Shown: positions 1 to 24,301 of the stretch, in pieces
Layout: each line of letters opens with the position of its first letter
Numbering within the stretch: position 1 is the first letter of the stretch
Assembly (NCBI GenBank): GCA_036867785.1
Contig: CP145415.1
Span: forward strand, 1,240,001 to 1,291,307
From: Plasmodiophora brassicae
Taxonomy: Eukaryota
DNA: 51,307 nucleotides
Direction of reading: 5' to 3'
The notes under the pieces: model-generated
What the model was told of the DNA's origin: nothing
Seen by the model: the letters and a program-made list of their open reading frames with translations, nothing else
Database searches by the model: none
Position numbers and translations under genes: made by a program

Positions 1-2228
1 TTGCATATGGCCATGTACGCCATTACACTGACGATGGGAAACCATGAGCTTAGGGGTGGGAGCCACGGTTGCCACCCGACCTGGATCCGATGGGGACCAG
101 CGATAGGAAGAAGACGTGCCAATAAGCGAAGAAATTCTCAGGGCCACAGTACAGCAGCCACGAGAACGACGACAGGAACGCACCGGCTATTGAGAACATG
201 GCTGATCTGAGCAACAGGTTATTGAGCGCCAACCGGTAGAGCCGAACGTGGACGCTGCCTAACACTCCCAACGCGTTCCTGTATCGTGCATCAACGATAA
301 TGTCACGAGTGAACGGCAGCATGGTGTAGACGTTGACCAGACGAGCTGGCAGTGAAGGTCAGCGGGCATATACAGGGCGCGATAAAGTTGCTCTACCCTT
401 ATTTGGAGTATACAGAGCCATCATCAAGGAGACCACAGTCACGACAACGACGACGATCTCAGCAGCAATGAAAAACGAGACGTTAAACTTCAGCGTTAGC
501 AGCGTCACGTCTTTGAAACTGTCAATTTCATACGTGCTGTACAGGCGAGCGTTCAGGCATGTTAGAAACCCGGCCTAGCAAAGGCAGACAAACACCTGCT
601 ATATTCGCAGCTGGGGCTGTCGCATATCGCCAGCTTGAGGTAGAACGAATTGGGTGCTTCGTACACGGAATACGTGATAACCTACGATGAAGGCATTGAG
701 AAAAGGGCACTGACAGTGATGGGAACCAAACCGCACTGACAGGTCTGCCATCCGAGGGACGCAGGACCATTGAGATCTGCATCTCTGAAACGATCCATAA
801 AGGACTCTCGTCAACGACGGAAGCATCAACACACTGATCGGTATCGTCAATGCAGAGCGGGGCGGCACACTTGAAGACCAGCAGCGCGCCACCGACCCCG
901 CCTTCCCAGGCCTGAAAGAAGGCAATGATCGGCAGTCCACCGCCTGCGAACACGCTGGTCACTCGCATCATCGGTATGACACGGGCCGCCTGAACGCTAC
1001 ATACCAACAGGTAGGCTTCTGCTTGTACACCTTATAACGGGCCAGTTGATGGCCTGCGCGCTGTTCATCAGCGTCCGTATCGTGCAGTCCTTGGCCACCA
1101 ACGATGACGTGCTGCAAACGGCCAGTTGCAGGATGGAATACGATTCATCAGCGTAGGCGACGAGCAAATTGCCACTGTGGTCCAGCGCGACCGACGAATA
1201 CTCAGACGCAGACTCATCTGAACACCGGAACGAAAAGCGTCAACGACACGAACGCAGATGCGTCCTACTCAGACCCTGCCTAGCGTTACGATTCGAGGCG
1301 CGTCGCACGTCCCCTGATCGCAGACGCACAGCTGTAACGTGCCCGTCGTCCCATTTGGGTTCCTGCGGTCGTGGTGTCAAACGCGGTAAATGACGCATGC
1401 AAACGGGGGAGGGGGCCAATCGAGGACCATTGCTGGAAGCTGATGATGGTCGTGTTCCCTGCAGTGACAATGTCGGTGGACCCGTACGAATGGTAGAACC
1501 CTCCCAGCTTATACGGGAACGTGACATGGGACGACCGACAGTCATCGGTCAAACCTGCCCTGAGAGTTGGACATCAGATTGTACACAGAGATGAGCACCA
1601 TCACCAACAGGTCGCGACGGCTAGGGAATTTCTTGTCTTGTCCATGTAGGCGACGAGCGGGAGGCCGTTGGCGCCGACCAGGGCAGCCGCCGCAAACCCG
1701 ACATTCGACGTGCTGCCAATCTTGGTCGTCGTGAACGCGGCGCAGGACGAATCAGAACACGACATGCCATACAAAGTGGCGGCATTGCCCGACTGCAACG
1801 GTGCAAACGCGATGAACGGGCGATTGCGCACGAACGTCAGCGATGCGGCCGCCAGCGGCGGTGTGCATCCCAGATGCCGACTTCGCTTCGATTCCGTATC
1901 GCACTGCTCTGCGTTCGGCACAAGCGCCCTGCCTGAGTCGGTCTGCACGTCTTGACGGTGGGCCGTCTCACGACCGACCTGCGTCGCACGTGGTCATCTT
2001 GAGCCCCCAGGCGGATCCGTAGACGACAACGATGGACCGCGTGACCGGGTCCAGTTGCAGGGACGGGTACTGGCCGAGGTCGGTGACACCAATCGGCCCG
2101 CCGTCCATTGCCGCCCCCCACGCCGACACCGTCACGATGATCACGCCAGCGACCACGCCGGCACGGCATGCCATTACGGCACGCGACCCTCCGACTAGAA
2201 TAGCGAATATAAGGGGGGACGGGGCCAT
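1..2228 (-). CDS. Multi-exon secreted/membrane protein with repeated propeller-like motifs and C-terminal TM helices; 3' end runs off the window
   Basis: Minus-strand exons give a hydrophobic N-terminus (GVVAGVIIVTVSAWG). Repeated units follow (LGQYPSLQLDPVTRSIVVVY..LKMTTCD; VGFAAAALVGANGLPLVAYMD..LAVATC; EYSSVALDHSGNLLVAYAD), then TM segments (FFIAAEIVVVVVTVVSLMMAL; ORF 50-322). Boundaries are approximate. Confidence 0.6.
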
Positions 2229-2288
2229 CAGACCGGCCGGTCCCTGACGCCCCCCGGTTCCATTTACTTATCGTATCGTACAATCTGT

Positions 2289-2702
2289 TTAAGCGGACGT
2301 GTCGTCGTCGTCGTCGCCGCTCGGCGATCTCGGCAGTTTGAAGTAGGACGATTCAACGTGCGGCGCGTGTTGCAGGATATCGTCGTGGGGACACGGGTCC
2401 AACGCGGCGTCTTCCGTAAGGCGCAGGCTGTGTCCCCAGAAGTCGAGCGGTGATACGACCGGCTGTACGTCATCGGGGACGGGCGCGTTCTGCACCTGCG
2501 CGGTCCACTCGATGACGGCAGCAATACCGGCGTCCGATTCGCCATCGCCGACTTTGCACATCGCCTGCAGACGACCGCGTTCATCTTCACTCAGCACGGG
2601 CGTTGCCCTCGACGCCGTCGCAGCCGACAACGCCTGGCGCAGAGACCAGGTCGACGGTGGCACCAGAGCTCGCGCCACGGCGCGCCCCGCGATCGACCCC
2701 AT
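2289..2702 (-). CDS. gatC: Glu-tRNA(Gln) amidotransferase subunit C-like (organellar GatC)
   Basis: 137 aa from ATG at 2702 (MGSIAGRAVARAL, presequence-like). Contains the GatC-like pattern VQPVVSPL..LRLTED..DILQHAPHVESSYFKLP. Confidence 0.7.
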   Translation of the reverse strand: MGSIAGRAVARALVPPSTWSLRQALSAATASRATPVLSEDERGRLQAMCKVGDGESDAGIAAVIEWTAQVQNAPVPDDVQPVVSPLDFWGHSLRLTEDAALDPCPHDDILQHAPHVESSYFKLPRSPSGDDDDDTSA

Positions 2703-18571: not shown

Positions 18572-19091
18572 CTTGTCCAGGATATGGAAATGAGAGCGGC
18601 TGGCGGCAGTGCGCGCTCGAAACTGCGCCACGGTGTCCGGACGATACCGTACATACGTGGCCCGCTTGGAAACAGCGCAAGTGGACCCCACAGGCCCACA
18701 CACTGGTACACAAGCGCATAATAATGGACCATGATGGCGGGTTCTTGCTGCCGCAACAAATTATCTAGAGGACAACGGGGAACCTTTCTTTCTCACTGCG
18801 TCAATCGAAACCAGCCTTGTATCATAGGGACCGGGTAACCCAACAGATCACCGAAGGCCCCGAACAATAATATTGTCCCGGCTGGACGCTCAACGCGTTC
18901 CGCTTTCTCTGCGGGCTGAAATAACCGATCCGCTGGGTTCGCTACGTAGGTGCTCACGACGGGACGACTTAGGAATTTCGTGGGTACGTCAAAAGAAGAG
19001 TCCGGAGGTTCTGGTACACGGGATTTCAAGTCGACGAATCCAGTAACGGGTCGCCCGCTCGGCACTCAGTTGTCCGTCCGCGGACGCGTCC

Positions 19092-22000
19092 ATGGCGGAA
19101 CAGGATGTCGTTATCGGCATCCTGTCGTGCGGGCCTCCTACCGACCATGACCCAGTTGCGTCGTACAGCAGCGATTATGCAGCCCTGACTGGGGCTCCCG
19201 TCACGCGCATCGATGCCGACGTCCACGCCGAGGCCATCTTGGTCGACCATCTCGTACGAGATTTGCGAAATGGTCGTGTCGTCCGATTCATGATGAGTCG
19301 ATGTGTAGAGCTTATCGGACCCGTTCGAATACCTGGAATGCGTGTTCGAACAGTCTGTGCATACAGGCCATGTCCAGATGCAGGCCATGGTCATACGGTA
19401 TGCGCTGCTTCTCATATCAGATCCGTACCTAGTCCCGATGGAGTCGGGTGCTGACCTGTCCCTGTCTGCTGCTTACGACTGGCTGGCGCGCGAATCGGAA
19501 CCAGTGCCCCCGTCAACCGAAGCGCTAGGCGACCCATCGTCAATGCCGGCTACCCGGCAGCAATGTCGATTTCTGTCGCGTTTCCTTCCTGTCCTGATCG
19601 ATGCCATGTCTCCGGTGCATGTGCAGGCCATCGCAGCCACATTAGTACGTGCACAGCGCTCCCTGTCAGTCGTATCGCCAGATGGGCTTCGAGCCTTACG
19701 CGCCCTGCATCGTTTCTTGTTAGCCGGCAGCCCAGCCCTTCAGGCATGGGTTGCGCTGCCGTCGTACTTGAACCCATGGGTCAACGGCAATGCCTTCCAG
19801 CACGATACCCTCCTTGGGATCTTCATGCCTTGCACGCCTGCTCTTAGGTCAGTCTTGTATGAATCCGCTCCACGTCGCCAGGTCTGATGAGCGCTTATGG
19901 AACAGTGACGTCAGCGGGCAGAACGAACAGGAACGGTTGCTCTATGTGACGAATTTGCGTCATAAATTGCAAGGAGCGCATGCCCTCCTGGTCGACATCT
20001 GGCGTAAAATGCTGGACAACGGAGGGATAACCAGGTCGGCACTACTGGCCTGGGTTGCGCTGCTACTGCTGGGCAACTGGGGTCGGACCCGGCTGATGAG
20101 ATCGCAACGGGATCGTACCACATCGACGGACGAGTTCCTGATGTCGCTCTGCCTGTACATGATGGAATGCGTCGACATGGGTACGACGCCTGCGTTCGAG
20201 CCGGATGTGTTCCTTCGGCATTCGCGCCTCGACCTGGGTGACCAAGAGACTCGTCTGCATCTGCCAGCCGCCCAGGCTCGGCAGCAAGTCTCCGAACTTA
20301 TTGTCCCCGACCAATCGGATGATGATCAGGCATTCATGCGCTTATCCATGCACAACGACCATTCCGGCATTATTTGTAAGTCGCCCGGAGATGCGTATGC
20401 TGTATGCACCTGGTTGACATTGAAGTACCTGCTTGACAGGCGATAAATGTCGGTCCAAGTTCATCCGAGGAATTCGGTACAAGTGTGCTCACTGCAGTGA
20501 TTACGACCTTTGCGAAACGGTAATGTATATGGGTGATATCGGTCGCTCCTATTCGTCGTCAATGACGCTCGTCGTTTTTCATGCAGTGCGAACATGACAT
20601 TTACTGTAGCACGTTGGGGCAGTCGACTGTTCCTGGACATCTCTTCGAATGCCCATTATCGCAGACTTGCGGTTCGACTGAATCCTTCACGGATCTGCAA
20701 CTTCGTCGGCATGTTGCAGAACACCATACTCAGATTGAGCTGCCCGTTCCCTGTCCAATTTGTGCCGGTACACACAGTGGAACTCAGATGGGATCTCGAC
20801 ACCTGACTTGTGCGATGTGCCTCACACAGCGAACGGTTCGTCCGCTGTTTCACGTAACCTGCACGAACACATGGAACGTGACCATGCAGACGTTCATGAT
20901 GCGTCGCGTCATCTAATGATCAAGCTTCGTCATGCGGTGCCATGTGGACCCTTCAAACGGATATCGCCGCTGCCGGTGCCGCCCTTGCTGGAGTCCTTCA
21001 ATGCCGACACATCGGCATCGATGCAGTTCGACGCGGACACGTACCAGGCTACCGTCGTGCATCAAAACACACAATGCGGCAACTGTCACGTCTCGCCGAT
21101 TCGCGGCGTACGCTTCGCATGCTTTAACTGTGACATGGACCTATGTGCGGTCTGTGAAGACCGCGATGAGGTTCGGCGGCAGCATACAGCCTCTCACGTT
21201 TTCGTACAGGTTAGCACAGTACGACAAAGGGTGTGACCAATGCATTCCGTGCTGACCTAGCGTCCAGGTTCGTCGTGCGGTCGCCGTGGATTGGTGTGTC
21301 GGCAATCGACACAACCCGCCCGTCTATCCCATGGCGATCGTGGGTTCCTGTGGTCTTGGCTTTGCAACGGAATGGAGGGTTCTGACCATGCACGCCCTGC
21401 ACGTCGGCTTCATACAATGCACGGCCCGCTACAGTGTAAAACCGCATGGTTCGTCGTTGACTGTGTTTAACGGCTAACGTTTGCGTATGTAGTCGCAGCA
21501 GGCACCAGCACGCACGTCCCTGTCCGTCCAACTGCTGGATACAAGATTCCTGCACGGTGCGACCCTTCTTTATGGGCAAAGTGCATCTATCCTGCTGAAC
21601 CTACTGAAGACGGAGCAACTGTCGGTCCTGGACGCTGTTCCTGAGTACTGGGTCGACGACATGGCCACCGCGTTGATTTTCCTCGCGGAGCATGCTATTC
21701 ATGTTGTCGAGGGACGTCTTCACACGGATTGCCTTCCCATCCTTCAGCTGTTCGTTCGTTTCATCGGTAGCCCAGACCGAGTTACCAACCCGTACTTGCG
21801 TGGCAAACTGACGGAGGCGCTGTGTGCTCTGGCGCCAATTACAACTGCCCATGGCCAAGGAACCACTCGCATGACAACTGTCATGTCCGAAGACCCTGTC
21901 CTCGTCTCTCAAGCAGTTCCATCCGTGCTTGGCCTGTATGTCCAGATTGAGCATACTGGGACGACGTCGCAGTTCTACGACAAGTTTAACGTATCTGACA

Positions 22001-23209
22001 ATCGGCACCGCTCCGTGTTTCCGAGCAGACCGATTGATTGCCGCTTGCTGTATAGGTCCGGAACGTCGTCGAGCTTGTACTCAACTGGCTGCTGTCTAAC
22101 CCAGCGCATCGTCAGCGCCTGGACAATTTCGTGTAACGCGAACTCTGCAGAAATAATTTGTCTTTGCTGATGTTACTGTGCAGACGCTCGTGCCCCGAAG
22201 TTGCTCTGCAATTTATGCATTGTCTGGTCACTGACCTCGTCTTTGTCCTCGATGAGGCTATCGCCAAGGTTCGAAACCCTCATGTTCGAAGTGTGTGTAT
22301 TCTTGACGTATCGTGTATGATGCAGTCGGAATCGGTGTCCGCTGCTGAATCATCAGCCGAGGCCTCCGAGCAGCGATCTCTCGTTCAGTTACGACGGCAC
22401 CTTAGAATCGTGTCTGCCCTGGCGACTGAGGCGCTGCGCACACTGGTGATCATGGCTGGGCATTCGGGTATGACGACACACTGTCAGCTGACCTTCACCG
22501 ATGACTCTGCTGACATAGCGACAGGCATGCTCACTGTTATGGAACGCCCTGAAATGGTGGAGCGGCTCGCCCACACGATCAACTATTATGTCGTGCGATT
22601 GCTTCCGCTGACGCAATCCTCAACCGAAGCGCACGCTCGGCTTGGATTCAACCCTGCTGCCTGGCTGAAACAATTCGCCGTGCTATATCTCAGGCTGGGA
22701 CACTCGCACCCGTTCAACCGGGTATGGACATGCGTGGGGCACATGTAGCAATCGCGATGAGATCCTAACTGTGTGTTCAGGCTGTCGTAACGGATGGGTG
22801 CTCGTTCCGGCCAGACCTGTTTCCCGATGTGCTGTCTGCTGTCAGTGCATGCACAGATGGAAGCGAGGAGGACGTCGCCAGTAGACTTGGCCCGTATTTC
22901 GAGCAGATGACGACAATGGGACGGGACGAGGCGGCCCGCACCGACGTGCTAGGCGAGGTGCCATCCGAGTTCCTTGACCCGATCTTGAACACGCTCATGA
23001 CGGACCCGGTGATCCTGCCGGCGTCAGGCATCACCATGGACCGCGCCGTTATCTGTCGTCACCTGCTGTCAACACAGACGGACCCATTCTGTAGGGAACC
23101 TCTGACGCCCGATATGCTGCGATCCGATACCGCCCTGCTCGAACGTATCACCGCCTGGCGCGAGCAACAGCTTCAACGAGAAACACAACGTCCTCCGGCA
23201 CCTCGATGA
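19092..23209 (+). CDS. UFD2: UFD2/UBE4-like U-box ubiquitin E4 ligase with inserted ZZ and C2H2 (Di19-like) zinc fingers, multi-exon
   Basis: UFD2 core motifs STDEFLMSL, DQETRL, FATEWRVLT, VPEYWVDD, NPYLRGKLTEAL and IEHTGTTSQFYDKFN. C-terminal U-box VPSEFLDPILNTLMTDPVILPAS..DRAVICRHLLS..DPFCREPL. Confidence 0.9.
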
Positions 23210-23356
23210 TGAATTCCCGTCTACAGCATACATACCTACCTATATCGCATCCTGACACATGAAGGCATGCATGACTTAATTGACGGATATTCATTTGGGA
23301 ATGGGATGACGTCGAAGAACATTTTCGGGCGTGGTCGACGAACGGCGGCACCCGTA

Positions 23357-24301
23357 TCATTTCCAGCCGCGAGCCAGCTGCGCACCACATGCCAGCCCAA
23401 CGGCAGGGACGGCTATCGGCGACCGAGGCATCATCTCGCGCCACGATGAGGACAGCTTGTTACCGGACGCGTCCCGTCTGACATCCTCAATGGCTTTGGC
23501 GACGGGTTCGCTGTCGGCAAACTCGCGAATTAGGCGCGCCTCCTCGGCGGTCGTCTCCCGGTTTTCAATTGTGTTGTTGACGACGGAGCACAGGAGACGT
23601 ATGCCACGCTGCGACTCCTCCAGCATCAGCAGCTGACGGTCGTGCTTGGAGGCAAGCTCCTCGATACGTGACTCCATGCCATCGATCTTGCCGGCCACGA
23701 GATCCACAACGCCTTTCACGCGGTTGACTCCTTCTCCGAGGACGTCGACCTTGACATCCAACTGTGATAGGTCGGACGCCATCGACGCCTGGGCCGCCGC
23801 CATTTTGTCCTGTTTACCGGACAGGTCGGCCACTCTTGACAGGAACTGATTACGAACCTATGCACAGCGTCAATTAGCAGTACGTTCTGAGTTCGCGTGC
23901 ATGTGCACCTTGTCAATGGAATCCTGCAGATGGTCGAGTCCTTTGCTGAGCTCCTGGACGCTCTTCTTCCAGGCGCGACGAGTGACCCAGAGCAGGCCGC
24001 TCAATGACACGCCCGACAGCTTCATGACGCAGTACCCGACGCCGGCAACGCAGACGACGGTGACCGTCGTCGATACCGTCGCCGATGACGACGCAGGTGC
24101 AGGAGATGTCACGACGGTAACGCCGGTCGGGCTGGGCGATGGATGGCGGAGGGCGGCCAGGGCCTGGGCCAATTGCGATGAAGCATCAGACTCAGACGAT
24201 AGCAGCTTGGGGGCGTAGGCGGCGCCCGCCCCGCCTGCCAGGCCGGCCAGCAAGGTCGGAATGGTACGGCCGCCGGCCTGCACGACGAACGGCGCGGCCA
24301 T
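23357..24301 (-). CDS. DUF1664-like membrane-anchored coiled-coil protein (2 exons)
   Basis: TM followed by GYCVMKLSGVSLSGLLWVTRRAWKKSV..L, then a heptad coiled coil ending GIRLLC, matching the DUF1664 layout as recalled. Confidence 0.6.

Follow-up and report, generated by a model that had tools for sequence, protein, structure and literature searches.

Yeast Ufd2p branches K29-linked ubiquitin chains, which are gripped via two N-terminal loops (PMC5303827), while in a second, much larger E4 system the ZZ domain and adjoining DZB of KCMF1 act as the substrate receptor of UBR4 (PMC7618180). The ZZ domain of KCMF1 binds N-degron substrates and needs D29 and D31 to do so, mutation of these residues abolishing recognition of ABHD10 (PMC12286842); in the ZZ domain of p62 the exchange D129A abolishes binding of N-terminal Arg, and N132 tunes specificity (PMC8038991). 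Plant UBR4 (BIG in Arabidopsis) has an internal ZZ domain that binds N-terminal Arg, and plant DI19 is devoid of a ZZ domain (PMC7618180). The 51,307-nucleotide stretch of Plasmodiophora brassicae DNA analysed here (contig CP145415.1, positions 1,240,001 to 1,291,307; hereafter the window, to which all coordinates refer) contains an expressed gene whose product is a U-box E4 ligase of the UFD2/UBE4 type (1135 amino acids) with a core interrupted by a zinc-finger module resembling the receptor part of KCMF1. An initial annotation, made from the letters of the window, had pointed to such a module and to the partnership of KCMF1 with the E4-like UBR4, and the latter agrees with the receptor role cited above.

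The reading frame of the gene is open solely once 12 GT..AG introns of 51-67 nucleotides are removed, and the start ATG at 19092 is the earliest ATG downstream of an in-frame stop. Twenty public runs from 13 studies contain the stretch, with a word share of 0.73-0.74 in 19 of the 20 and of 0.98 in the run X15, and splicing was checked on the contigs of four of them (X1, X2, X4 and X15), the RNA status of the runs being only guessed. Single contigs of 5512 nucleotides (X1) and 4591 nucleotides (X4) each show 12 of the 12 splice joints, and a 4350-nucleotide contig of X2 shows 11, with a contig break at the first intron; X15 shows none (0/12) and reads through the introns, i.e. it represents the unspliced DNA form. 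Since contigs from X1, X2 and X4, which belong to three studies and carry three organism codes, are devoid of the 12 introns at exact GT..AG borders, they represent the spliced form even though RNA status is a guess, and the zinc-finger exons are therefore joined to the UFD2 exons on either side. Hence, one spliced form unites the zinc-finger exons with the UFD2 core and the U-box, in line with the single transcript that the initial annotation had assumed. As contigs drop rare isoforms, rare exon-skipping forms could escape data of this kind. The spliced contigs also overrun the interval 19000-23300 at both ends: the 5512-nucleotide contig of X1 extends ~1.4 kb past 23300 and ~0.5 kb before 19000, and thus crosses a neighbouring minus-strand open reading frame (23357-23857), which could reflect overlapping convergent transcripts or an assembly join.

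Matches to Ufd2P_core and to the C-terminal U-box, together with the predicted fold of a relative, assign the protein to the UFD2/UBE4 U-box E4 ligases. The window was scanned with Pfam exon by exon and not as the spliced protein, which was otherwise handled in local scripts; four exons match Ufd2P_core, the best of them (21493-21990) over model positions 235-405 with an expectation value (E) of 5e-24. Used as a query, this exon retrieved P0002 (1203 residues, environmental), P0003 (1706 residues) and P0001 (a 581-residue fragment that begins at the end of the second ZZ domain); in P0002 and P0003, Pfam recognizes Ufd2P_core, U-box, ZZ and zf-Di19, and P0002 matches yeast Ufd2 in sequence with 3.3e-45. 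Consistently, residues 418-869 of the predicted model of P0077, a relative from a foraminifer, superimpose on residues 376-886 of yeast Ufd2 (2qj0; Z-score 28.1; root-mean-square deviation (r.m.s.d.) 3.1 Å, 436 aligned residues). Z-scores of this model on yeast Ufd2 structures are 26-28, and in one row (9khs_A) model residues from 12 on reach yeast Ufd2 residue 258. The whole-protein model of P0077 has a mean predicted local distance difference test score (pLDDT) of 64.7 and a predicted template modelling score (pTM) of 0.53, with 80-95 in the core and weaker values in the module and the N-terminus.

Between the exon that encodes the UFD2 motif DQETRL (19906-20375) and the one that encodes FATEWRVLT (21268-21435), a module of ~220 residues (386-604) sits in a loop of the armadillo-like core and comprises a ZZ domain, two Di19-type C2H2 fingers (DZB) and a second ZZ domain. 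Three peptide stretches had initially been quoted from 20345-21215 and placed between these two motifs; all three are present once introns 20376-20439, 20520-20586 and 20768-20829 are removed, and the module lies where it had been placed. The first ZZ domain is recognized by Pfam on an exon of just 26 residues (20442-20519; E 3.9e-8, 33.4 bits with a cut-off of 21.4) and is matched by the solved ZZ domains of MIB1, HERC2, p62 and KCMF1. Its six Cys ligands (C391, C394, C406, C409, C415 and C418) occupy columns kept in 11-12 of the 12 rows of the alignment, the ligand columns of the Di19 fingers are kept in all 12 rows (8/8), and 24 columns of Cys/His ligands in total, which would suffice for six zinc sites, are kept in at least 10 of 12. 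The domain order is far beyond chance and recurs collinearly in relatives.

Apart from UFD2 proteins, KCMF1 chains are the best matches by sequence among solved structures. Residues 419-516 of P0002 match residues 2-103 of KCMF1 (chain 9jni_A) in one stretch with E 9.2e-10; for P0055, a short module-bearing fragment, the corresponding value is 6.1e-13, and KCMF1 provides the top 7 of its 27 solved-structure matches; the Di19 exon of the window has six such matches, five of which are KCMF1. On consecutive window exons Pfam reports ZZ and then zf-Di19, i.e. the order found in KCMF1. The predicted model of P0055, which was built from a 14-row alignment (pLDDT 79.3, pTM 0.69), points in the same direction: all four Foldseek matches at E<=0.001 are KCMF1, with a poor rigid fit over both domains (r.m.s.d. 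near 11 Å), and in a second-look alignment KCMF1 occupies the top four rows (Z-scores 8.8-9.1; r.m.s.d. 1.7-1.9 Å, 59-62 residues over the Di19 fingers), the DZB superimposing on 9upz_A with a Z-score of 9.1 and an r.m.s.d. of 1.7 Å for 62 residues. The second ZZ domain of this model matches the ZZ domains of HERC2, p62 and PRT1 with Z-scores of ~5-6. Taken as a whole, however, the protein is a UFD2 family member with a KCMF1-like receptor and not a KCMF1 orthologue: (i) the C-terminal helix that anchors KCMF1 to UBR4 has no counterpart, the alignments stopping at KCMF1 residue 115 (P0002) or 157 (P0055), (ii) the ZZ-DZB part is followed by a second ZZ domain and the UFD2 core, and (iii) the module is internal (residues 386-604 of 1135), whereas KCMF1 is a stand-alone protein with an N-terminal ZZ domain.

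The KCMF1 layout proposed for ZZ and Di19 in the initial annotation is thus borne out by sequence and by the predicted fold of P0055, with the amendment that the first ZZ domain seems to be split, the Di19 fingers being nested within it, unlike in KCMF1. About six ZZ structures (among them p300, CBP, PRT1, BIG, Ada2 and dystrobrevin) align with 44-64 residues over the P0055 model from residue 25 or 33 to residue ~160, and H500 and H505 are kept in 12 of 12 rows, with no His pair after C418. Because of these alignments across the model and the invariant His pair, we suggest that the Di19 fingers are nested in a split first ZZ domain which would be closed by H500 and H505, an arrangement that was found in no solved structure.

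The two ZZ domains differ in the residues that line the pocket. When aligned to full-length KCMF1, the first ZZ domain retains D10, D29 and D31. Ten of 12 rows have the Asp of its CDxC motif, which P0154 (Asn) and P0003 (doubtful N-terminal gene call) lack, and all 12 have the motif D[YF]D[LM]C. In the second ZZ domain, none of the 12 rows has an Asp in the first CxxC, and the window protein is the only one among them with both later Asp residues.

The match of the window protein to Ufd2P_core ends at model position 155 and resumes at 161-163 in P0001, P0002, P0049, P0076, P0077 and P0154, the core position of the insertion being identical in all relatives that carry the module. To judge from aligned ranges only, the module would replace a loop near yeast Ufd2 residues 350-376; for the biology of UFD2, a surface loop that tolerates an insertion of 220 residues is thereby marked.

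How widely this design occurs was assessed with phmmer, exon 20832-21209 being compared exhaustively with 1.84 billion representatives; 942 matches at E<=0.001 were obtained. The best 150 of the 942 were examined by scanning with local profiles made from the window protein and P0001-P0003; matches are mostly generic multi-ZZ proteins, and weaker module-bearing proteins may lie outside the best 150. Among these 150, at least five proteins (P0043, P0049, P0076, P0077 and P0154) contain a UFD2 core, all five with Ufd2P_core, ZZ and zf-Di19 in Pfam, and at least eight contain the whole module in one piece, namely those five and the short fragments P0044, P0047 and P0055, with a partial module match in P0122. 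Since P0044 breaks off just after entering the UFD2 core, it is a fragment of a protein built in this way. Nonionella stella, a foraminifer, is the source of the EukProt entries P0076 and P0077, and both align collinearly with the window protein (27.9% identity over 954 columns and 31.7% over 941, respectively), as does P0002 (42% over 1151 columns). The design thus spans Endomyxa (Plasmodiophora brassicae) and Retaria (Nonionella stella) within Rhizaria, and the insertion is, because all carriers including the foraminifer share the same core position, an old and conserved feature of a clade with at least two rhizarian lineages. The large UFD2 clusters of the Atlas that lie nearest to P0002 show Ufd2P_core and U-box only (scores 0.84, a lead only), in keeping with the initial statement that canonical UFD2 is devoid of the additional domains. 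A word-index search with exon 20832-21209 returned nothing, one with P0002 residues 405-680 returned, besides P0002, just two ZZ proteins that are unrelated, an Atlas search with the module alone gave no usable match, and a metagenome scan with a ZZ-pattern alignment yielded one locus (L001) unrelated to UFD2. The latter encodes, at 51-2582 (+), a protein of 843 residues that has Cys-rich repeats of IBR-like type and a ZZ domain at its C-terminus, which we read from the translation as an RBR-type ligase.

Two of the relatives, P0043 (~1087-1537) and P0003 (~571-1010), carry a further insert of 440-450 residues inside the UFD2 core, with Cys as its first residue, a TPDH motif ~110 residues further on and GN, followed by Cys, at its end; the inserts are 57% identical and the whole proteins 79%. 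The layout is reminiscent of an intein, an idea that neither Pfam nor solved structures support, the insert having no match in either. An intein inside the first ZZ domain of P0003 was also considered and rejected, the close relative P0043 having an intact first ZZ domain. Residues 1-230 of P0003 do not match the N-terminal region of UFD2 and stand in place of the first half of the first ZZ domain; P0043 possesses both the intact domain and that N-terminal region; in P0003 the start of the gene was probably called wrongly.

The coordinates of the gene and of its parts are collected in the Table. Approximately 2 kb downstream of the gene, tandem repeats occupy 25143-25652 (33-nucleotide unit x 14.6, with a higher-order period of 99 nucleotides x 5.1), and a second array at 25875-26032 consists of a related 32-nucleotide unit (x 5.1); this repeat region is traversed by long open reading frames in several frames on both strands.

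Table. Features of the UFD2-type E4 ligase gene, in window coordinates.
Feature	Position	Strand	Remark
UFD2-type E4 ligase gene, full coding region	19092..23209	+	13 exons, 1135 codons and stop
Introns 1-6	19254-19308, 19848-19905, 20376-20439, 20520-20586, 20768-20829, 21210-21267	+	GT..AG
Introns 7-12	21436-21492, 21991-22055, 22133-22183, 22269-22325, 22468-22524, 22722-22780	+	GT..AG
UFD2 core before the insertion	19907..20374	+	Pfam Ufd2P_core (PF10408) positions 35-155, E 1.5e-10
First ZZ, N-terminal part (H386-C418, six conserved Cys)	20360..20589	+	spans two introns; CDKC and DYDLC pocket motifs
Two Di19-type C2H2 fingers, corresponding to the DZB of KCMF1	20650..20885	+	C439/C445/H459/H464 and C473/C476/H491/H496; one intron crossed
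Segment with invariant H500 and H505 and a strand-like motif	20895..20930	+	proposed closure of the first ZZ
Second ZZ (H555-H600), eight ligands, devoid of the conserved acidic pocket	21060..21197	+	matches solved ZZ domains; conserved ligand columns (C560 through H600)
UFD2 core after the insertion, six exons	21268..22721	+	Ufd2P_core positions 235-405, 434-458 and 525-583
U-box (E2-binding domain)	22958..23170	+	Pfam PF04564, E 1.6e-25 on 22781-23206, model positions 1-71 of 73

Because the first ZZ domain keeps the three acidic pocket residues, we suggest that the protein is an E4 ligase with a built-in receptor for N-termini, parallel to the pair of UBR4 and KCMF1, a functional proposal which draws on analogy with these proteins and to which we give a roughly even chance, the architecture itself being observed. 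The first ZZ domain with its nested fingers would hold the free N-terminus of a substrate via the three acidic residues, as p62 and KCMF1 do, and the UFD2 core and U-box would cooperate with an E2 to lengthen or branch the ubiquitin chain that this substrate carries. One polypeptide would then combine the tasks that are divided between two subunits in the case of UBR4, the E4, and KCMF1, the ZZ-DZB receptor. The second ZZ domain, being devoid of the pocket, would more likely have a structural or other binding role.

Several observations weigh against this proposal. At the level of domain detection, the Pfam match of zf-Di19 on 20587-20766 (E 1.2e-5, 25.8 bits) is just under the cut-off of 27.5, which we attribute to the intron that splits the domain, and the second ZZ domain, on exon 20832-21209, is likewise below the cut-off (E 0.002, 18.3 bits), the weak domain being confirmed by matches of the same exon to the solved ZZ domains of HERC2 (3.8e-6) and p62 (1.1e-5). 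The His pair that usually follows the sixth Cys, and does so in KCMF1, is missing from the first ZZ domain, whose presumed completion by H500 and H505 is drawn from the predicted model of a relative. The P0077 model has low confidence around the module and does not fix the placement of the module relative to the U-box. In P0154 the first pocket Asp is replaced by Asn. Finally, reports on the specificity of human KCMF1 conflict: reading of N-terminal Lys (PMC12286842) and of Met-Lys and Met-Arg starts by the ZZ domain (bioRxiv 10.64898/2026.09.15.751905) stands against a preference of ZZ-DZB for Thr at position 2, with RA, RR and RL peptides not bound (PMC7618180). The initial annotation had named ZZ domains as binders of N-terminal Arg degrons and had proposed an N-degron-reading ligase; we retain an acidic pocket for the first ZZ domain, cannot do so for the second, and do not take Arg to be implied by the sequence, given the peptides which human KCMF1 left unbound.

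The likeness to KCMF1 could also be read differently, with the module being a docking unit instead of a degron reader, which would tie the UFD2 ligase to a partner, e.g. the DOC1/beta-sandwich domain of a UBR4-like scaffold, two E4 systems then cooperating. In the complex named SIFI, the ZZ domain and the two C2H2 fingers of KCMF1 bind DOC1 of UBR4, and point mutations there impair UBR4 binding (PMC12286842), an observation which has to be added to those that weigh against a receptor. However, the main anchor of KCMF1 on UBR4 is its C-terminal helix (PMC12286842), the very part that is missing here, and docking alone would not need the conserved pocket Asp residues, so that we consider this explanation unlikely. 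It appears less likely still that the module is regulatory or structural, either binding the protein's own N-terminus or an internal segment in order to gate activity, or binding tails other than degrons, as happens with SUMO1 and histone H3 tails on the ZZ domains of HERC2 and ZZZ3. No evidence for self-binding was found, and the SUMO1 and H3 ligands are themselves held by their free N-termini, which makes this explanation overlap with that of a built-in receptor; what speaks for it comes from the second ZZ domain, which is devoid of conserved pocket residues and is best matched by the ZZ domains of HERC2 and ZZZ3, in entries titled as complexes with the SUMO1 tail or the histone H3 tail. Similarly improbable, and slightly more so, is a first ZZ domain acting as a RING-like catalytic unit, which would unite a chain-starting E3 and a chain-extending U-box in one polypeptide: the ZZ domain of KCMF1 was called RING-like and is needed for the ubiquitin conjugates formed by KCMF1 from UBR4-deleted cells (PMC12286842), whereas in another study KCMF1 showed no ubiquitylation with any E2 tried and its ZZ-DZB was concluded to be a receptor and not an E3 (PMC7618180). 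That the zinc-finger exons form a separate nested transcript, or are usually spliced out, is scarcely credible and without any positive support found, even granting runs merely guessed to be RNA and contigs that miss rare isoforms, since in three studies single contigs link these exons at exact GT..AG borders with the UFD2 exons on both sides, the spliced frame stays open for 1135 codons, and module and UFD2 core are in one predicted protein in P0002, P0049, P0076, P0077, P0154 and P0043.

If the built-in receptor is accepted, a broader and more tentative picture may be drawn, which we hold to be possible rather than probable. In this rhizarian clade, a KCMF1-type ZZ-DZB would have been built into UFD2, with the Di19 fingers nested in a split ZZ domain, such that one chain both checks the N-terminus and extends ubiquitin, i.e. 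an independent single-chain version of the logic of UBR4 and KCMF1; should a separate KCMF1 be absent, this part of N-degron quality control would have passed to UFD2. Work from 2025 has established that the giant E4 UBR4 picks its substrates by two marks, ubiquitylation that has already taken place and a signal at the N-terminus, which the ZZ-DZB of KCMF1 reads, and that plants moved the ZZ domain into the ligase. Here, the same receptor unit is built into UFD2, an E4 that is unrelated to UBR4 and far smaller, which suggests that the pairing of an N-degron reader with an E4 arose more than once. With ~1100 residues in one chain, the protein also offers a compact natural system for learning how a reader of N-termini steers chain extension.

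In the literature searched, most subscription journals lying outside it, we found no UFD2 protein described as having ZZ or Di19 domains; the domains may already be visible in automatic database annotation. The initial annotation had called the architecture one it did not recognise; it is, however, not peculiar to this organism, since a foraminifer and several relatives of environmental origin have it too. When compared with yeast Ufd2 and animal UBE4A and UBE4B, with which it has Ufd2P_core and the C-terminal U-box in common, the window protein adds ~220 residues (ZZ, DZB and ZZ) between core model positions ~155 and 161. With p62/SQSTM1, an N-recognin, it shares the fold (Z-scores 4-5 for the predicted P0055 model) and, in the first ZZ domain, the acidic pocket motif; p62, however, is an autophagy receptor and not a ligase, and the residue after the second Cys, N132 in p62, is Arg in the first ZZ domain of the window protein. 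KCMF1, as part of the UBR4 E4 complex (SIFI), has in common with it the succession of a ZZ domain and two Di19-type fingers and the pocket residues D10, D29 and D31, but here the module is internal to another ligase instead of being a separate subunit, is devoid of the UBR4-binding helix and is followed by a second ZZ domain, and the His pair that closes the ZZ domain appears after the Di19 fingers. Arabidopsis BIG and DI19 provide a precedent for an E4 with its own internal ZZ reader of N-termini and for a separable Di19 part; the E4 is a giant hemi-RING ligase there and a U-box UFD2 here, and whereas plants split ZZ and Di19 between proteins, both reside in the ligase of Plasmodiophora brassicae.

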